Part shown: positions 3,729 through 64,000 of the stretch, piece after piece
How positions within the stretch are numbered: position 1 is the stretch's first letter
Layout: the number at the start of each line of letters is the position of its first letter
Assembly (NCBI RefSeq): GCF_044704955.1
Contig: NC_091981.1
Coordinates: forward strand, 226,238,001-226,302,000
Direction: 5' to 3'
From: Pristiophorus japonicus
Taxonomy: Eukaryota
Length of the DNA stretch: 64,000 nt
Notes under the pieces: generated by a model
The model's input: the letters and a program-made list of their open reading frames with translations, nothing else
Told to the model about the DNA's origin: nothing
The model's database searches: none
Translations under genes and position numbers: made by a program

Positions 3729-3864
3729 TGTACTGCTGTGATAAGGCAGCCATTGCTGTAAATGCAATAAAGTCATCAGGTGACAGGTCGCTTGACAAGT
3801 CCCTGTGTTATCAGCCATCTTTGGAGTCCTTGTGTGTTTGTGAGGTCGTAAGGAATATATCACA
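3729..3864 (+). repeat. 3' LTR of Gypsy A (136 bp; lacks 40 bp present in the 5' LTR)
   Basis: Follows the PPT, aligns to 505-628, ends ATATCACA followed by the TSD. Confidence 0.93.
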
Positions 3865-37014: not shown

Positions 37015-38060
37015 AGGTCATACTTTCTACTCAACTTCCACCCCACCAGCCCCCACATTCAATGGATCATCCTCAGCCATTTCTGCCAACTCCAGCATGA
37101 TCCCACCACCAAATACATCTTCCCCTCTCCTCCCCTTTCAGCATTCCAAAGGGACCATTCCTTCCACGACACCCTGGTTTACTCTATCACCCCCAATACC
37201 CTTCCCACACCAGCTTCCCGTGCAAGTGCAGAAAATGCAACACCTGTCCTTTTACATCCTCCCTTCCCACTGAAGTTTCATGTTCAGCCATAAACTCATT
37301 GAATGGTGGTGCAGGCTAGAAGGGCTGAATGGCCTACTCCTGCACCTATTTTCTATGTTTCTATGTTTCAATCCAGAGCCCCAAATGCTCCTTCCAGTTG
37401 AAACAGTGACTTACTTGTACTTCTTTCAATTTAGTATACTGCATTCGCTGCTCACGATTGGGTCTCCTGTACATTGAGGAGACTAAACGCAGATTGGATG
37501 ACTGCTTTGTGGAACACCTCCATTCAGTCTGCAGCCATGACCCCGAGCTTCCGGTCGCCTGTCGTTTTAATTCTTCAGACTGCTCCCACTCTGACCTCGG
37601 CCTCCTACACCATTCCAATGAAGCTCAATGTAAGCTCGAGGAACAGCACCTCATCTTTCGAGTAGGCAATTTACAGCCTTCCAGACTCAACTTTGAGTTC
37701 AACAATTTAAGATCATAACCTCTGCCCCCATTTTTTCAGATGGGAGCTGTTGCTGATGATTCTGATAATCCCATTTACATCTCCTCCAGAGCTATCTTTT
37801 GTTTCTTTACTTGTCCCATTACCATCTCTTTTCAACTTGCACCATCATCCTGTTTGTAATTTAACCTCTCCTGCCTTTCATCCTATCATATAACTTCCCC
37901 TTTGTTCTTTCCTCCCTCCCCCCTTTCCCTGCCTCTGTACTTGCTTAAAACCTGTTGCATCTCTAACTTTTTCCAGTTCTGACAAAACGTTATCTCTTTC
38001 TCTCTCTCCACAGATGCTGTCTGACTTGCTGAGTATTTCCAGCATTTTCTGTTTTTATTC
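37015..38060 (+). mobile_element. Penelope-like retroelement 3' part (GIY-YIG endonuclease and tail), interrupted by a ~100-bp CR1 tail at ~37269-37368
   Basis: ORF 37458-37718 YIEETKRRLDDCFVEH...PVACRFN...KLEEQHLIFRVGNLQPSRLN is typical of PLE GIY-YIG; tail CCACAGATGCTGTCTGACTTGCTGAGTATTTCCAGCATTTTCTG. Confidence 0.8.
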
Positions 38061-46105: not shown

Positions 46106-46578
46106 TCATATCCTTTATCTGATCTCTTTCGTCAACATCTGTCTTGTCTCGCCTGTTCTAGCTGTATAATTTGTGTTTATAAATGCCTATTTGCACGTCT
46201 CTTGTCCTTTGGCTTGTATGATTATTCAGGTTCAAACTCTCGTTCTATCATTTTAATCTTAAGCATAAATAAATATTTTCTTTCCCGCCCCAACGCAAAC
46301 ACACTTACTCATAGTTCACCTGTCCCTCTTTGATTACTATTCGTGGTAAATGTTACAATTATATCAACCATTTCCTTATTAAAATGACCGTTACCTATAC
46401 CACAGCATAGATGCACTCCATTGTTTCGAAGCTGGACCTTTCCTGGGCGCCTTGTGTAACTGACAAGTAACTTGTACTAAACGCGGGAATCATCCGGTTC
46501 AATTCATTGGGAGGCCATCAACGAATTGGAAACCGACGCGGCGTGGCTTGTCGGCACACACATACAATGATAGAGTCA

Positions 46579-47457
<879 letters not shown>

Positions 47458-49985: not shown

Positions 49986-50359
49986 GAGGCTTTACAATTT
50001 TGTTTCACTTTCTGTTATAATTGACTTGGGAGCACTTAGTGGTGATATTGGCTAACAAAAAGTTAAAATGTGTTTTTTTTCTCCTTAGCATTGAAACTCC
50101 TGACCATGAATGACAAAAAAAAAACCCACAAAACATTTTGAAGAAAAACGATTCAAAAACTTTAGAATTGTTCAATCTATTCTTCAATCTGAAATATGTC
50201 AGAGTATATCATCTCAATTCTAATGGTATATAAGAAAGTCCAATGCCTGCCTTCGAAATGAGGGAATTATTGGTGGTGACAATTATGTGTGGTAAAAGTG
50301 ACAAAGATGTGAACACGTATTTGAATGCATGGAGCTGTTTTTAAACTAAAAAGACAGAA

Positions 50360-53395: not shown

Positions 53396-53885
53396 CCAAT
53401 AAATCTCCAGGTCGTAAATTGCGGATGAACACCAAGAAGGAGATTTGTGAACAATAACAATCATTATAAAAGAGTTACTGGATACTGGAAGCAGATTGAA
53501 ATCAGGTCAACATAGTACCCATATTCAAAGAGAACAAACAGGCACATGCAACTATAGACCCAGTAGTCTTTCATCAATCCCATGTAAAATAAGGGAATCA
53601 ATTACCAGTTGTAAACTTGAAAATTATCTGTACAATAATAACTTAGTTATCAGCAGTCAACAGAGATTTTGAAGGGGAAAATCCTAGCTAACCAAACTTC
53701 TTTACTTCTTTGAGGAAGTGACAACTTCATGGGCTTCAGAAAACCCTACAATATATTGTACCTAGATTTCCCAAAGACATTTAACAATGTTCCACACAAA
53801 AGGCTATTAGTTAAGCTTAAAAGTGTGGGCATTCAGAGTAAATTCTGGGTATGGTTAATAAATTGGTTGAAGGGTAGAGAACATT
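53396..53885 (+). mobile_element. Old CR1 RT fragment
   Basis: ORF 53729-53911 (ILYLDFPKTFNNVPHKRLL..WLINWL). Confidence 0.75.
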
Positions 53886-54719
53886 GGCCGAGAATTTGCG
53901 GTCAGTGGTGAAGCAATAGCATTCACCGCTGACCTCAAAGAAAGTTGCCCACAAAGATCATTGTGGCATGAATTTCAGCTCTGCCAATTTTAGTTTGAAT
54001 CTGGCAACAAATCAAGTGAATCTCCAGCATTCAGCAACAGTGATGTCATCAAGCTGGCTAAGTAGGCAATCACATTGAAGAATTCTCACAGACAGTAATC
54101 CAGGAAGTATGTCCTAGAATACAGGGTACATACTGGAATATATATAATTTGTTGTTTCAGCATAATTGGATTTTAAGAAAATGAATGATGTATTTGATGA
54201 ATTGTCTCTGAAGCCGTTTAATAGATTGAATTATGCATTGGCATTGCAATCATTGCATTATGAATATGGAGGTGTAATGTCAATACTTTTTGAAATAAGG
54301 CCCATAACCCAATGCTAGCCACTAATTAAACTCCAGTCCTCGTACTGCCAGATAGCTTGTGGCCAAGATCTTTAAAATTCCATTTTGAAATGCCCAATAT
54401 TTGATACTTTGGAAAAATCAAAGCCAAGTCTACACCTCCAAATGGGTTTATTTAGTTCTGCTAATTAATGTGGCTTTCATAAATTAGACTGTCAAGGATC
54501 CTTTTGCACTCTTCAAATAACCAATAAAGCTTTTCATGGCCAGAGAGATTTTATTCCACCAGACTATCAAGATTAGGTATCCAGTACCAGACAGCTAGGA
54601 ATTCCAACACCAGAGATGCACACCTATTACCCAGACTGTAAGAGATTATAGTTAAATAACTATCACTGGACTGCCAGAGGTGATCAGATCACAAGGTAAT
54701 TGTGGATGAGAAAGGCCAT

Positions 54720-55200
54720 GCAATTCATCCAAGTAATCCATCTGGAAATACCCTACAGTGCCTCCATTGCAGCATCCAATTATACTGTAAATGGTTCTGG
54801 GTTTTTGCCTCCACTACTCTATAGTAGGCTGCTCCATGTGTTGAGCATGATTTGTGTGAAGATGAACTTCCTGATATCAATCCTAAATGTTCCTTTTACT
54901 AATTTGAACATTTATCCCTTTCTTACATTTACAATTTAGTTTACAGTAATTTTCTGGATTTATCATTACCATATCTTTTACTATCTTGTAAACCTCTATG
55001 AGATCACCTCTCAGACATCTCCTTTCAAGGGTAAAAAGCCCTACTTTTTCACGTGCTTCTTCGTAAATCATACCTTTGATGCCAGGGACCAGCCTTGTGG
55101 CTTTATTCTACACTGCCTCCAGTGCTAGAATGTCTCTCCTGTACTGCGATGATGAGAACTGCACAACGTAATCAAGGTATGTTGTGACTATACAGTTTCA
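54720..55200 (-). mobile_element. Old CR1 3' fragment
   Basis: ORF 54883-55071 (GLFTLERRCLRGDLIEVYKI). Confidence 0.75.
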
Positions 55201-55444: not shown

Positions 55445-55545
55445 AACTTGCATTTATATAGCGCCTTTCATGACCTCAGGACGTTCCAATGCGCTTCACA
55501 GCCAATTAAGTACTTTTGAAGTGTAGTCACTGTTGCAATGTAGGT
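55445..55545 (-). mobile_element. DeuSINE-like SINE 3' fragment
   Basis: ACTTGCATTTATATAGCGCCTTTCATGACCTCAGGACGTTCC...AAGTACTTTTGAAGTGTAGTCACTGTTGCAATGTAGG. Confidence 0.7.
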
Positions 55546-56724
55546 AACATTTGTTCGGAAAATAAAAACAATCATTTGAGTCAGTTGAAACATGGTTGGA
55601 CAAAGAGTTACTTTGCTAATCTTTGCTGAACTAATTGCTGCAGACATTTCTACTGTCACAACATAAATTAAATATTTCAAAAGGAAAACTACAGCCCTAG
55701 GTGTGATACATAGTGGATCAGACAATTTGGGCGTCATTAGACACCCTTGAAAAATACAGTTATTGTCTCAGTTTTCCCTTTAAACGTCTCCACCGTGTCT
55801 CTGACATGTAGCAATCGTGGGGATTTATGCAGAGGGATCTAATCCACGGGCTATGCAAAAACCATAAATCACCGACTGAAAATCAATACATCTTGGTCAG
55901 AATGGATTTCTGCGCCCTTGAAATGTAAACCGAGTAAATGAAAATGACAATTTCCCAAAAAGACTTCAGCAATTGAGCAAACACAAAGTGTTTTGTCATC
56001 TCTCGATTGAAGCTGAATCATATTTGAACACATTGATTAATTTCCATTGACTGCACATGAATTATGTTAAGCACGGCATTTAACTTGATCTTAAGTATAA
56101 TTTCTTGTTAAAATCGATTGAGGGTTGAATATCGAACCTGCTTTACGGCGCTTGAAAAAGACACAAAGTACAATATGAACTAAACCCCGTGATGATTTTG
56201 TCCACACGTTTGTGTTAAGAATTCAACTACTTTAAAATTCTTAACTGAAAACAGACAACGCTACGAAGACATAGCAGGTTCGTCAGCACCTGCACAGAGA
56301 AAATATTCTCAATTTGTTTCCGGGTGATTATAATCTAGCCAGGGTTGTTTTGAGTATCGGACCGTCTATATTCTGATTGCAAACAAATTACACCAATAAG
56401 AAAGACACAACTAAATTACTGGGAAATGTGTATTTTACCATAATAACTAACATCCCGTGGTACCTGGAGTATAGATGGTAATTCATATTAAACTTTTTGC
56501 ATTAAAAATGGAGATATGTTCCCAATTTTTTTGTTGATTTCGTCATCACATCCCGCTGAACGTGGCTGGTAGCCAGTTCATTTCCATCGCTACTTCTTTA
56601 GATAATGGTGAGGAAATAGGAATTAAAACAATTGTCGTTTAAGGAGTTGTCTTCTGAGTAGAAAGTTTCTTTTTTTTTGTTCATTCTTGTCAGATCAACT
56701 CCAGCGCCAAAGATCACTTTGCGC

Positions 56725-56835
56725 TACTACACTTGATCTTAGCCAAAAGGCCGAGAGGGGAAACTGCACCATTCCTGGAAACACTGCAATACCAGATCGA
56801 TGTGTGGAGTGGACGGAGCAAGCCCCTGTTCCATC
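56725..56835 (-). pseudogene. RNU2: Rearranged (circularly permuted) U2 snRNA-derived sequence: U2 3' part followed by U2 nt 7-38
   Basis: Reverse complement of 56765-56835 is GATGGAACAGGGGCTTGCTCCGTCCACTCCACACATCGATCTGGTATTGCAGTGTTTCCAGGAATGGTGCA (U2 stem-loops III/IV). Reverse complement of 56725-56756 is TCTCGGCCTTTTGGCTAAGATCAAGTGTAGTA (U2 stem I plus the branch-point pairing GUAGUA). Confidence 0.9.
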
Positions 56836-57397
56836 CCAGGCTGAACCTTAAGCACGCAATACAGTGGATGGTGTGGTATTTCACGGAACGATGTGAATAT
56901 AGTATATACTGTTCACATGAAAGAATGACTGTTCGGTTTAGCCAACCGTCATCAGGGACATTTGATCATTATTAACAAGACAATGGAAAGGAAAGTAGCC
57001 TCGGTGATATAGAGAAAAACACAGTGACTTTATATTCCTTCAGAGTACAAGGTATTTAATAGAAATCATAAAGCTTGAAGCAATTATTAGTTTCTCCGAG
57101 ACTGTTAAGCTTGGAGTAGAGTATTATACTTAGAATAAAATTTCTAAATTGTACTTGGAGTGGAGTTCCATATTGAACTCATCGCCAACAAGAGAGAGCC
57201 TAACCACCGCCCCTTTACATTCAATGAAATTACCATTGCAGAATCCCCCACCGTCAACATGCTGGGGGTCACCATTGACCAGAAACTTAACTGGACCAGC
57301 CACAAAAATACTGTGGCAACAAGAGCAGGACAGAGGCTGGGTATTCTACGGTGAATGTCTCACCTCCTGATTCCTCAAAGCCTTTCCACCATCTACA

Positions 57398-58508
57398 TGG
57401 TAATATATTAACATGGATAGAGGATTGGCTAACTAACAGAAAACAGAGAGTCAGGATAAATGGGTCATTTTCCGGTTGGCAAACGGTAACTAGTGGGGTG
57501 CCGCAGGGATCAGTGCTGGGGCCTCAACTAGTTACATGACTTATATGAAGAGACCGAGTGTAATGTTGCCAAGTTTGCTGATGATACAAAAATGGGTGGG
57601 AAAGCAAATTGTGAGGAGGATACAAAATATCTGCAAAGGGATATAGACATGCTAAATGAGTGGGCAAAAATTTGACAGATGGAGTATAATGTGGGAAAAT
57701 ATGAGGTTATCCACTTTGGTAGAAATAATAGAAAAGCAAATTATAATTTAAATGGAGAAAAATTGCAAAGTGCTGCAATACAGAGGGACCTGAGGGTCCT
57801 TGTGCATGAAATACAAAAAGTTAGTATGCAGGTACAGCAAGTGATCAGGAAGGCAAATGGAATGTTGGCCTTTATTGCAAGGGGAATAGAGTATAAAAGC
57901 AGAGAAGTCCTACTACAACTGTACAGGATATTGGTGAGGCCACGTCTGGAGTACTGCATACAGTTTTGGTCTCCATATTTAAAGAAGGATATACTTGCAT
58001 TGCAGGCTGTTCAGAGAAGGTTCACTAGGTTGATTCCAGAGATGAGGGGGTTGACTTATGATGATAGGTTGAGTAGGTAGGGCCTATACTCATTGGAGTT
58101 CAGAAGAATGAGAGGTGATCTTATCGAAACAAATAAGATAATGAGGGGGCTATACTAGGTGGATGCAGAGGGGATATTTCCACTCTTAGGGGAAACTAAA
58201 ACTAGGGGACATAGTCTCAGAATAAAGGGCCGCCCATTTAAAACTGAGATGAGGAGAAATTTCTTCTCTCAGAGGATTGTAAATCTATGTAATTCTCTGC
58301 TCCAGAGAGCTGTGGAGGCTGGGTCATTGAATATATTTAAAGTGGAGATAGACAGATTTTTGAGCGATAGGGGAATAAAGGGTTATGGGGAGAGGGCAGG
58401 GAAGTTTAGCTGAGTCCATGATCAGATCAGCCATGATCTTATTAAATGATGGAGCAGGCTCGAGGGGCCAGGTGGCCTACTCCTGCTCCTATTTCTTATG
58501 TTCGCATG
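57398..58508 (+). mobile_element. 5'-truncated CR1 nested in the host LINE
   Basis: ORFs 57679-58080 and 58159-58413; TTCTTATG tail; TACA duplicated at 57394-57397 and 58509-58512. Confidence 0.93.
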
Positions 58509-60372: not shown

Positions 60373-63300
60373 GGTTTCTATATTATACTTGGACTAGGAT
60401 TTCTATATTGTACTTTGAGTGGGGTTTCTGCATTGTACTTGGAGTGGGGTTTCTATATTGTACTTGGAGTGGGGTTTCTATAGTGTACTTGGAGTGGGGT
60501 TTCTATATTGTACTTGGAGTGGGGTTTCTACATTGTACTTGGAGTAGGGTTTCTATATTGAACTTGGAGTGGGGTTTCTGTATTGTACTTTGAGTAGGGT
60601 TTCTGCATTGTACTTTGATTAGGGTTTCTGTATTGTATTTTGAGTGGGGTTTCTATATTGTACTTTGAGTGGGGTTGCTGTATTGTACTTTGAGTGGCAT
60701 TTCTGTCTTGTACTTTGAGTGGCGTGTCTGTATTGTACTTGGTGTGGGGTTTATATATTGTACTTTGAGTGGGGTGTCTGTATTGCACTTTGAGTGGGGT
60801 TTCTGTATTGTGCTTTGAGTGGGGTTGCTGTATTGTACTTGGAGTAGGGTTTCTATATTGTACTTGGAGTGGGGTTTCTATATTTTACTTGCAGTGTGGT
60901 TTCTGTATTGTACTTTGAGAGGGGTTTCTGTATTGTTCTTTGAGTGGGGTTTCTATATTGTACTTGGAGTGGGGTTTATATATTGTACTTTGAGTGGGGT
61001 GTCTGTATTGCACTTTGAGTGGGGTTTCTGTATTGTACTTGGAGTGGTGTTTCTGTATTGTACTTGGGTTGGGGTTTATATATTGTACTTTGAGTGTGGA
61101 TTCTGTATTGTAGTTTGAATGGGGTTTCTGTATTATACTTGGGGTGGGGTTTCTATATTGTACTTTGAGTGGGGTATCTAGATTGCACTTTGAGTGGGGT
61201 TTCTGTATAGTACTTGGAGTGGGGTTTCTATATTGTACTTTGAGTGGGGTTTCTGTATAGTACTTTGAGTGGGGTTTCTGTATTGTACTTTGAGTGGGGT
61301 TTCTGTATTGTACTTGGAGTGGGGTTTCTGTATAGTACTTGGAGTGGGGTTTCTGTATTGTACTTGGGGTGGGGTTGCTGTATTGTACTTGGAGTAGGGT
61401 TTCTATATTGTACTTAGGGTGGGGTTTCTATATTGTACTTTGAGTGGGGTATCTAGATTGCACTTTGAGTGGGGTTTCTGTATTGTACTTGGAGTGGGAT
61501 TTCTGTGTTGTACTTTAAGTGGGGTTTCTAGATTGTACTTTGAGTGGGGTTTCTATATTGTGCTTGGAGAGGGGTTTCTATTATTGTACTTTGAGTGGGG
61601 TTTCTTTATTGTCCTTGCGGTGGGGTTTCTGTATTGTACTTTGTGTGGAGTTTCTATATTGTACTTGGAGTGGGTTTCTATATAGTACTTGGAGTGGGTT
61701 TCTATATAGTACTTGGAGTGTGGTTTCTCTATTATACTTTGAGTGGGGTTTCTGTATTGTACTTTGAGTGGAGTTTCTATGTTGTACTTGGAGTGGGGTT
61801 TCTGTACTGTACTTGGAGTTGGTTTCTATATTGTACTTGGAGTAGGGTTTCTATATTGTACTTTGAGTGTGGTTCCTATATTGTACTTGGAGTGGGGTTT
61901 CTGTATTGTACTTGGGGTGAGGTTTCTGTATTGTACTTTGGGTGGAGTTTCTGTATTGTACTTGGGGTGGGTTTTCTGTATTGTACTTGGAGTGGGATTT
62001 CTGTATTGTACTTGGAGTGGGATTTCTGTATTGTACTTTAAGTGGGGTTTCTATCTTGTACTTTGAGTGGGGTTTCTGTATTGTACTTGGAGAGGTGTTT
62101 CTAATATTGTACTTGGGGTGAGATTTCTGTATTGTATTTGGAGAGGGGTTTCTATATTTTGCTTGGAGTGGGGTTTGTATATTGTACTTTGAGTGGAGTT
62201 TCTATATTGTAATTGGTGGGAATTCTATATTGCACTTGGTGGTGTTTCTATATAGTACTTTGAGTGGCTTTTCTGTATTGTACTTGGAGAGGGGTTTCTG
62301 TATTGTACTTTGAGTGGGGTTTCTATATTGTACTTTGAGTGGGGTTTCTATATTGTACTTTGAGTGGGGTTTCTGCATTGTACTTTGAGTGGGGTTTCTG
62401 TATTGTACTTTGAGTGGGGTTTCTATATTGGACTTTGAGTGGGGTTTCTCTACTTTACTTTGAGTGGGGTTTTTATATTGTACTTTGAGTGGGGTTTCTA
62501 TATTGTACTTTAAGTGGGGTTTCTGTATTGTACTTTGAGTGGGGTTTCTATATAATGCTTTGAGTGGGGTTTCTCTATTATACTTTGAGTGGGGTTTTTA
62601 TATTGTACTTTGATTGGGGTTTCTATATTGTACTTTGAGTGGAGTTTCTATATTGTACTTGGAGAGGGATTTCTGTATTGTACTTGGAGTGTGGTTTCTG
62701 TATTGTACTTTGAGTGGGGTTTCTATATTGTACTTTGAGTGGAGTTTCTATATTGTACTTGGAGAGGGGTTTCTATATTGTACTTTGAGTGGGGTTATTA
62801 TATTGTACTTGGAGTGGGGTTTCTGTATAGTACTTGGAGAGGGGTTTCTGTATTGTACTTTTTGTGGAGTTTCTGTATTGTACTTTGAGTGGGGTTTCTG
62901 TATTGTACTTGCCGTGAGATTTCTGTATTGTACTTGGAGTGGGATTTCTGTATTGTACTTAAAGTGGGGTTTCTATATTGTACTTTGAGTGGGGTTTCTA
63001 TATTGTACTTGGAGTGGGGTTTCTGTATAGTACTTGGAGTGGGGTTTCTGTATTGTACTTGGAGTGGTGTTTCTGTATTGTACTTTGAGTGGGTTTTCTA
63101 TATTGTACTTTGAGTGGGGTTGCTGTATTGTACTTTGAGTGGCATTTCTGTCTTGTACTTTGAGTGGCGTGTCTGTATTGTACTTGGTGTGGGGTTTATA
63201 TATTGTACTTTGAGTGGGGTGTCTGTATTGCACTTTGAGTGGGGTTTCTGTATTGTGCTTTGAGTGGGGTTGCTGTATTGTACTTGGAGTAGGGTTTCTA

Positions 63301-64000
63301 TATTGTACTTGGAGTGGGGTTTCTATATTTTACTTGCAGTGTGGTTTCTGTATTGTACTTTGAGTGGGGTTTCTGTATTGTTCTTTGAGTGGGGTTTCTA
63401 TATTGTACTTCGAGTGGGGTTTATATATTGTACTTTGAGTGGGGTGTCTGTATTGCACTTTGAGTGGGGTTTCTGTATTGTACTTGGAGTGGTGTTTCTG
63501 TATTGTACTTGGGTTGGGGTTTATATATTGTACTTTGAGTGGGGTGTCTGTACTGCACTTTGAGTAGGGTTTCTGTTTTGTACTTTGAGTGGGGTTTCTA
63601 TATTGTACTTTGAGTGGGTTTGCTATATTGTACTTGGAGTGGGCTTTCTACATTGTACTTTGAGTGGGTTTGCTGCATTGTCCTTTGAGTGGCGTTTCTG
63701 TCTTATACTTGGAGTGGGGTTTCTATATTGTACTTGGGGTGGGGTTTCTATATTGTACTTGGAGTGGGTTTTCTGTATTTTACTTGCAGTGTGGTTTCTG
63801 TATTGTACTTTGAGTGGGGTTTCTATATTGTACCTGGAGTGGGGTTTCTATATTGTACCTGGAGTGGGGTTTCTATATTGTACTTGGAGTGTGGTTTCTA
63901 TGTTGTACTTTGAGTGGGGTTTCGATATTGTAGTTGGAGTGGGGTTTCTGTATGGTACTTGGAGTGGGGTTTCTGTATTGTACTTGGGGTGGGGTTTCTA
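60373..64000. repeat. 25-bp tandem satellite, consensus TATTGTACTT(T/G)GAGTGGGGTTTCT(A/G), continuing past the window end
   Basis: GGGGTTTCT recurs at 60421, 60446, 60471 and onward with period 25; the LYCTWSG-type ORFs are repeat artefacts. Confidence 0.97.

Follow-up and report, generated by a model that had tools for sequence, protein, structure and literature searches.

On the minus strand of the window (the whole stretch of DNA that was analysed, 64,000 bases long), three pieces of U2 snRNA stand in a permuted order. Read along that strand, the unit consists of U2 nt 133-185 (piece A), nt 107-185 (piece B), an 8-nt linker, nt 7-38 (piece C), a 46-nt tail and a run of nine adenines (A9). 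All three U2 pieces have the same orientation. The unit can be read, with a probability of roughly 0.55, as a non-functional and probably single-locus chimeric retrocopy, produced by a LINE reverse transcriptase (RT) that changed template several times. Its parts and the processes involved are already known; the three-piece permuted U2 arrangement itself was not found in the literature searched.

The U2 Pieces

Two matches to the Rfam U2 model RF00004 are found in 55500-58000, and they place the U2 pieces in reversed order. Piece C scores 43.4 bits (E 8.6e-7), with only about the first 38 model positions well aligned, and piece B scores 33.2 bits (E 2.5e-4; model 105-185 at 56845-56766). Both fall short of the gathering score, which is 46, and no match at gathering level is present across all 64,000 bases. 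The match of the pieces to U2 is far beyond chance. A first-pass annotation had noticed the 3' part of U2 lying before the 5' part and had proposed a comparison with this profile; the two sub-gathering matches, together with their minus-strand coordinates, confirm the permuted order.

Piece C (56725-56756, minus strand) is identical to U2 nt 7-38 and contains stem I, the U6-pairing region and the branch-point recognition sequence. Compared by eye with human U2, of which the supplement of PMC4640811 gives nt 1-75, it agrees at 32 of 32 positions, so that the exact match claimed earlier holds.

Piece B (56765-56841, minus strand) spans U2 nt ~107-185, that is, stem-loops III and IV without the last two U2 bases. 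Its numbering follows the tetrapod U2 consensus rows in Table S10 of PMC5322556 and not the U2 of the host. By eye against the anole consensus in that table, it starts at nt 107 (position 56841), two bases past the Sm site, instead of at about nt 114 as first thought; this boundary is approximate, because nt 106-110 differ among species. There is a 2-nt deletion near nt 114-115. Five sites differ from all 10 tetrapod consensus rows of the table, all of them by transitions and two of them at CpG. Over nt 115-185, counted by eye against the same rows, there are 6 mismatches to platypus, 7 to anole and 9 to dog and to mouse. With these five transitions and with a fold that is poor when the piece stands alone (equalled by 185 of 200 shuffles), piece B looks decayed. 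Faster decay of piece B than of piece C is not significant (Fisher 0.18).

Piece A (56842-56887, minus strand) is a degenerate copy of U2 nt ~133-185, comprising the end of stem III and stem-loop IV, and it adjoins piece B without a linker. It was found by aligning the upstream flank to the U2 3' domain, which was prompted by short repeats. The annotation had overlooked it, and the extent of 56670-56835 given there for the unit is too small. Aligned to piece B, piece A has 39 matches in 45 aligned columns (one of them the shared base 56841) and 7 gaps. Its score is reached by 9 of 10,000 dinucleotide shuffles, and under BLASTN-like scores 0.0024 of 5394 windows do as well. With the end of the alignment fixed in register at nt 185, right before piece B, the score is reached by none of 1758 control windows under either scoring. 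If gaps are scored leniently, piece A is equalled by two unrelated windows (3751-3810 and 38001-38060) out of 12,464. The case for it therefore lies in position and register, not in score alone. Rfam, run on 56838-57120 at E<=10, leaves piece A undetected and returns four chance-level matches, none of them to U2.

The damage in piece A amounts to 6 mismatches and 7 gaps in 46 nt, compared with 5 substitutions and 1 gap in 77 nt of piece B. At nt 169, piece A has the base of the tetrapod consensus rows, while piece B is changed there; this single site argues that piece A was not copied from the present-day piece B. Both pieces end at nt 185, two bases short of the mature U2 3' end. A U2 5' remnant at 56945-56928 was also considered and was rejected, 0.106 of 2000 shuffles being as good. 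Elsewhere in the window, 3741-3820 (minus strand) aligns with most of the U2 3' domain (53 of 64 columns, 10 blocks) if gaps are scored leniently; it has no gathering-level Rfam match and is probably a chance likeness.

The linker (56757-56764, minus strand) is 8 nt long and pyrimidine-rich, and joins U2 nt 185 to nt 7. Its last six bases are put on model positions 1-6 by Rfam, with poor identity. Candidate sources are non-templated addition, altered nt 1-6, or the 3' flank of a U2 gene of the host.

U2 nt 39-106, which hold stem II and the Sm site, are missing from the unit, as had been reported. Lacking both, the unit cannot act as U2. A functional U2 gene is colinear over nt 1-187, has stem II and the Sm site and scores at or above the gathering level; the unit is not such a gene. 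Within the 64-kb window there is no second copy of the tail, of piece B or of piece C, and no other U2 gene.

The Tail and the A-Tract

The tail (56679-56724, minus strand) consists of 46 nt of non-U2 sequence. It carries a local stem-loop at 56725-56703, and its bases 56706-56692 pair with U2 nt 24-37. Tail and piece C together are predicted to form a 19-pair hairpin (56739-56692), with modelled pair probabilities of 0.81-1.0. With piece C held fixed, this fold, which was noticed post hoc, is matched by 11 of 2000 tail shuffles and by 0.0146 of 4794 random 46-mers. Judged only by complementarity at the DNA level, it lacks significance (0.073). The short hairpin that had been singled out before is correctly placed, but alone it is unremarkable (13 of 200 shuffles; for the tail alone, 0.161 of 2000), being the top of the longer fold-back.

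A9 (56670-56678, minus strand) is short and is a candidate remnant of a poly(A) tail. Such a run is found in 105 of 15,156 random 68-nt strand-stretches of the window. Its position, like those of the linker and the hairpin, had been given correctly. Taken together, the fold-back and the nearby A9 suggest that the tail was RNA that arrived as part of the insert.

The tail has no match among the repeat ends in the window, and the common SINE/LINE tail of the window, compared in two copies, gives no clear match either. The best of 63 other A-tracts in the window scores 22 against the tail, a value reached by 11 of 1480 random sites. About 20 bases loosely resembling the tail precede the A-tracts at 50091-50124 (plus strand) and 56556-56526 (minus strand); their scores of 22 and 21, of which about 0.5 are expected among 63 A-tracts, are not significant. 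A second degenerate copy of head and tail at 56616-56526 was rejected (14 of 2000 shuffles as good with the A-tract, 335 of 2000 without it).

No target-site duplication (TSD) is seen between 56930-56830 and 56700-56600, in agreement with the annotation. The comparison yields only a 9-mer with one mismatch, which lies inside piece A, and two 6-mers.

Genomic Setting

The window consists of vertebrate DNA rich in repeats, among them fragments of LINE and LTR elements; to judge by HER1/HE1-like repeat ends, the host is presumably an elasmobranch. A tRNA scan gives no hits. The U2 locus falls within 55540-57110, a stretch without self-match in the window. Observed/expected CpG is 0.98 and 0.69 in 56001-57000, compared with 0-0.17 in 53501-55000 and 0.17-0.19 in 57501-58500. 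For the AT-rich, CpG-retaining segment 56001-57000, two possible identities are a regulatory region free of methylation and a repeat that is young and unclassified.

The first coding exon of a C1q-like gene, with collagen and C1q domains, is located on the same strand (46576-47457, minus), about 9 kb from the U2 unit. It sits in an 8.5-kb CpG-retaining stretch without self-repeats. A 25-bp satellite of at least 145 copies occupies 60373-64000 and runs past the end of the window, and a short remnant of the same satellite is found at 57110-57180, about 230 bases upstream of the U2 unit.

Proposed Serial Template Switching

The ends of the pieces coincide with landmarks of the RNA: pieces A and B end at nt 185, piece B starts 3' of the Sm site, and piece C starts near the 5' end. 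Joins that track the ends of the RNA make it likely that the unit was templated by RNA. Points counted for a chimeric retrocopy are the nearby A9, which is uncommon, the decay of piece B and the lack of a second copy in the window. The two consecutive U2 3' ends are in keeping with serial template switching onto U2 3' ends, not with one circle. The annotation had attributed the 3'-to-5' join either to a circular U2 or to an RT template jump between U2 molecules; piece A strengthens the jump, and the single circle is not supported.

The steps of such a process, like the identity of the tail and the single-locus status of the unit, are what we infer. Reverse transcription would have been primed on a polyadenylated RNA, and the tail would correspond to its A-tract together with the ~46 nt before it; these probably derive from the 3' tip of a LINE or SINE. 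The RT may then have switched to U2 snRNA, entering it at nt 38 where the branch-point region is single-stranded, with pairing between the tail RNA and nt 24-37 possibly helping. Copying would have continued to nt 7, followed by an end-to-end jump to nt 185 of a second U2 that left 8 extra bases. From there the RT would have copied back to nt 107, where it may have been stopped by the Sm ring or by the 5' end of a 3' fragment. A further jump to a U2 3' end at nt 185 would have led to the copying of about 50 nt, and then to integration.

Each of these steps has a precedent in the literature. Chimeras of snRNA and LINE sequence arise with L1, L2 and RTE, triple chimeras are known, and truncation of snRNA retrocopies in single-stranded purine-rich segments is the rule (PMC4476161). 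In SINEU elements, pieces of U1 and U2 were added recurrently at the 5' end (PMC4494074). The R2 RT performs serial end-to-end jumping with non-templated additions (PMC8594491). According to the same paper, R2 RT jumps from the 5' end of a template only and not from a pause, so that the last jump proposed here requires a U2 3' fragment or a different enzyme. Template switching in humans mostly involves U6 and U6atac and rarely U2 (PMC4476161). The far greater damage in piece A than in piece B is not explained by one event unless copying was error-prone, and the chimeric retrocopy also has to do without a TSD and, for its priming step, without a named tail donor in the window.

Among described retrocopies, the snRNA/LINE chimeras (Doucet et al. 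2015, PMC4476161) resemble the unit in that a piece of snRNA is followed, in the same orientation, by a short segment of other sequence and an A-tract, with multiple switches possible. In contrast to them, the unit has three out-of-order U2 pieces, a tail without an assigned donor, no TSD, and U2 in place of U6. Tailless U2 retropseudogenes (Noll et al. 2015, PMC5322556) share a U2 5' piece that ends at nt 33-39. They differ in that the unit starts at nt 7, has U2 3' ends in front, lacks a TSD and is located in a non-therian genome. Piece C misses 6 bases at the 5' end, where that paper allowed 5; its 3' end fits.

Other Explanations

The chief rival of the chimeric retrocopy, possible yet doubtful, is that the unit represents a copy of a U2-headed SINEU-like family. 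The master RNA of this family would consist of U2 7-38, the tail and poly(A), with or without a leading 3' domain. Pieces A and B would be 5' additions as in SINEU-1 and SINEU-2, and the tail would be a LINE-recognition stem-loop that clamps the branch-point recognition region. The anatomy of head, tail and A-tract agrees with this, and the tail folds with the head above chance at the frequencies given above. Of the features that define SINEU, a U2-derived head and a 3' poly(A), in the form of the short A9, are present. The elements SINEU-1, -2 and -3 of crocodilians (Kojima 2015, PMC4494074) share with the unit the U2 head, a short unique tail, the A-tract and repeated 5' snRNA additions. The U2 head of SINEU-1J is short, and subfamilies that came later grew by adding U1 and U2 pieces; SINEU-3 combines a ~40-bp non-U2 end with a 32-bp U2 5' piece, as found in the unit too. 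Unlike SINEU, however, the unit has the 3' domain before the 5' piece, whereas SINEU-3 is colinear with an internal deletion. Moreover, the host is apparently an elasmobranch, and the 2015 survey did not detect SINEU outside crocodilians. No Mariner target is seen: no inverted repeat bounds the unit among the best 25 of 28 pairs, three frames in the flanks and the locus have no Pfam match, and the flanks lack transposon-like terminal repeats. The fold-back, as stated, is a post hoc observation that is non-significant as DNA complementarity. The window holds no second copy, but finding one copy per 64 kb is hardly informative where a family may number up to a few thousand members.

The end of piece C at nt 38 matches the junction 38|39 of Keno (Tx1) and Utopia (NeSL), and a relic of such a junction is an improbable explanation of the unit. 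A U2 gene cut at 38|39 would have received a heavily 5'-truncated element, now the tail and A-tract, and the fusion would have been transcribed from the U2 promoter and moved here; alternately, the tail would be the 5' end of the element. The break lies exactly at the shared target site. Both Keno and Utopia have U2 from nt 39 after them, and a crocodilian Utopia copy meets U2-like sequence at the identical base, nt 38 (PMC4640811). In the unit, 8 of 10 bases that sit 6 nt past A9 are like U2 nt 43-52, but this likeness is weak (0.038 to 0.244 of ~21,100 control windows over nine settings), and U2 nt 39 onwards is not clearly resumed after A9. Nor is the end at nt 38 diagnostic of Keno or Utopia, since U2 retrocopies are ordinarily truncated in this region: the common form ends at nt 33-39, and in the first 24 rows of human tailless U2 copies in PMC5322556, 21 are 33-39 nt long and 7 are 37-39 nt long. 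Three motifs of the tail do not occur in 10 Utopia supplement files of PMC4640811. There is no RT or endonuclease (APE or RLE) frame nearby; downstream, in 55540-56669, the longest frame has 55 aa, except for one of 99 aa without a Pfam match. Compared with Keno and Utopia, the unit is without a coding remnant, without a clear nt 39+ behind it and outside a U2 gene. The link to these elements made in the annotation stands as far as nt 38 is their true target site, and is weakened by the same base being a common truncation point with no clear resumption behind it.

Less probable again is a patchwork made at the DNA level, in which a tailless U2 retrocopy or pseudogene was rearranged by local duplication and by templated insertion in break repair, and in which the tail would be flank or a snap-back product. 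Templated insertion of this kind is of the polymerase theta type. Piece A is rich in indels, and short stretches of flank and tail match the U2 pieces in several places, directly or inverted: 32 of 50 upstream bases lie within shared 6-mers (0.0085 of 18,885 windows), as do 24 of 46 bases of the tail (0.049). Yet piece A itself accounts for the excess upstream and keeps the consensus base at nt 169, and the joins lie at RNA ends, to which DNA repair should be indifferent.

A circle of whole U2 is excluded. If one U2 circle had been copied, nt 39-106 should lie upstream of nt 107, but nt 133-185 are found there; neither the absence of nt 39-106 nor the 8-nt linker is compatible with one circle. 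Pieces A and B could instead come from a minicircle formed by the 3' domain (nt 107-185) through rolling-circle reverse transcription, with piece C and the tail joined by a separate switch; this ranks below the patchwork in probability. It agrees with the A|B join, which leads without a linker from nt 185 directly to nt 107, and with the common end of both copies, but it needs an extra event for piece C and does not account for the unequal damage in A and B. By title and abstract, the literature matches listed include no circular U2.

An assembly chimera is the least likely explanation, and a very improbable one. The scaffold has five N gaps, but the nearest is 5.7 kb off, and the decayed bases in A and B point to old genomic sequence. 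Four DNA runs from one sample contain 0.91 of 114 sampled words of 56000-57100, with ~10 words missing where ~17-22 would be expected without the element (P 0.034 to 0.0025 under random sampling). These runs may come from the assembly's own sample, and their word content speaks mildly against an artefact. Nine other runs, from three organisms, contain 0.04 of the words and two contain 0.00, which carries no evidential weight. Among the runs listed as containing the words, none is an RNA run.

Implications

By title and abstract, the literature searched contains neither a permuted U2 retrocopy nor a shark SINEU; Repbase, Dfam and the SINEU supplement lie outside this scope and may hold a matching consensus. 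The three-piece permuted U2 is also absent from the available parts of PMC2912911, PMC6136364, PMC13019295 and bioRxiv 2025.02.02.635956.

As a one-off, the unit is a modest in vivo record of serial template switching on U2 snRNA. It also hints at the border of the Sm site as a place where RT is halted or where fragments of U2 start.

The importance would be greater if the unit were one copy of a mobile family. A specific form of this idea, slightly less probable than the general one above, is that it belongs to an undescribed snRNA-headed retroposon family of elasmobranchs. Such a family would be based on a permuted, Sm-less U2 RNA whose tail locks the branch-point recognition region in the 19-pair hairpin, and it would have grown by serial 5' capture of Sm-cut U2 3' domains. 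If true, the literature searched would have no earlier SINEU-like family from any host but crocodilians, and the genome would document that stable U2 3'-domain RNAs, which may be circular, existed in the germ line. Should the family exist, snRNA-headed SINEs would have arisen independently in cartilaginous fish, and the unit would offer a handle on how such elements are transcribed and how they avoid interfering with splicing.
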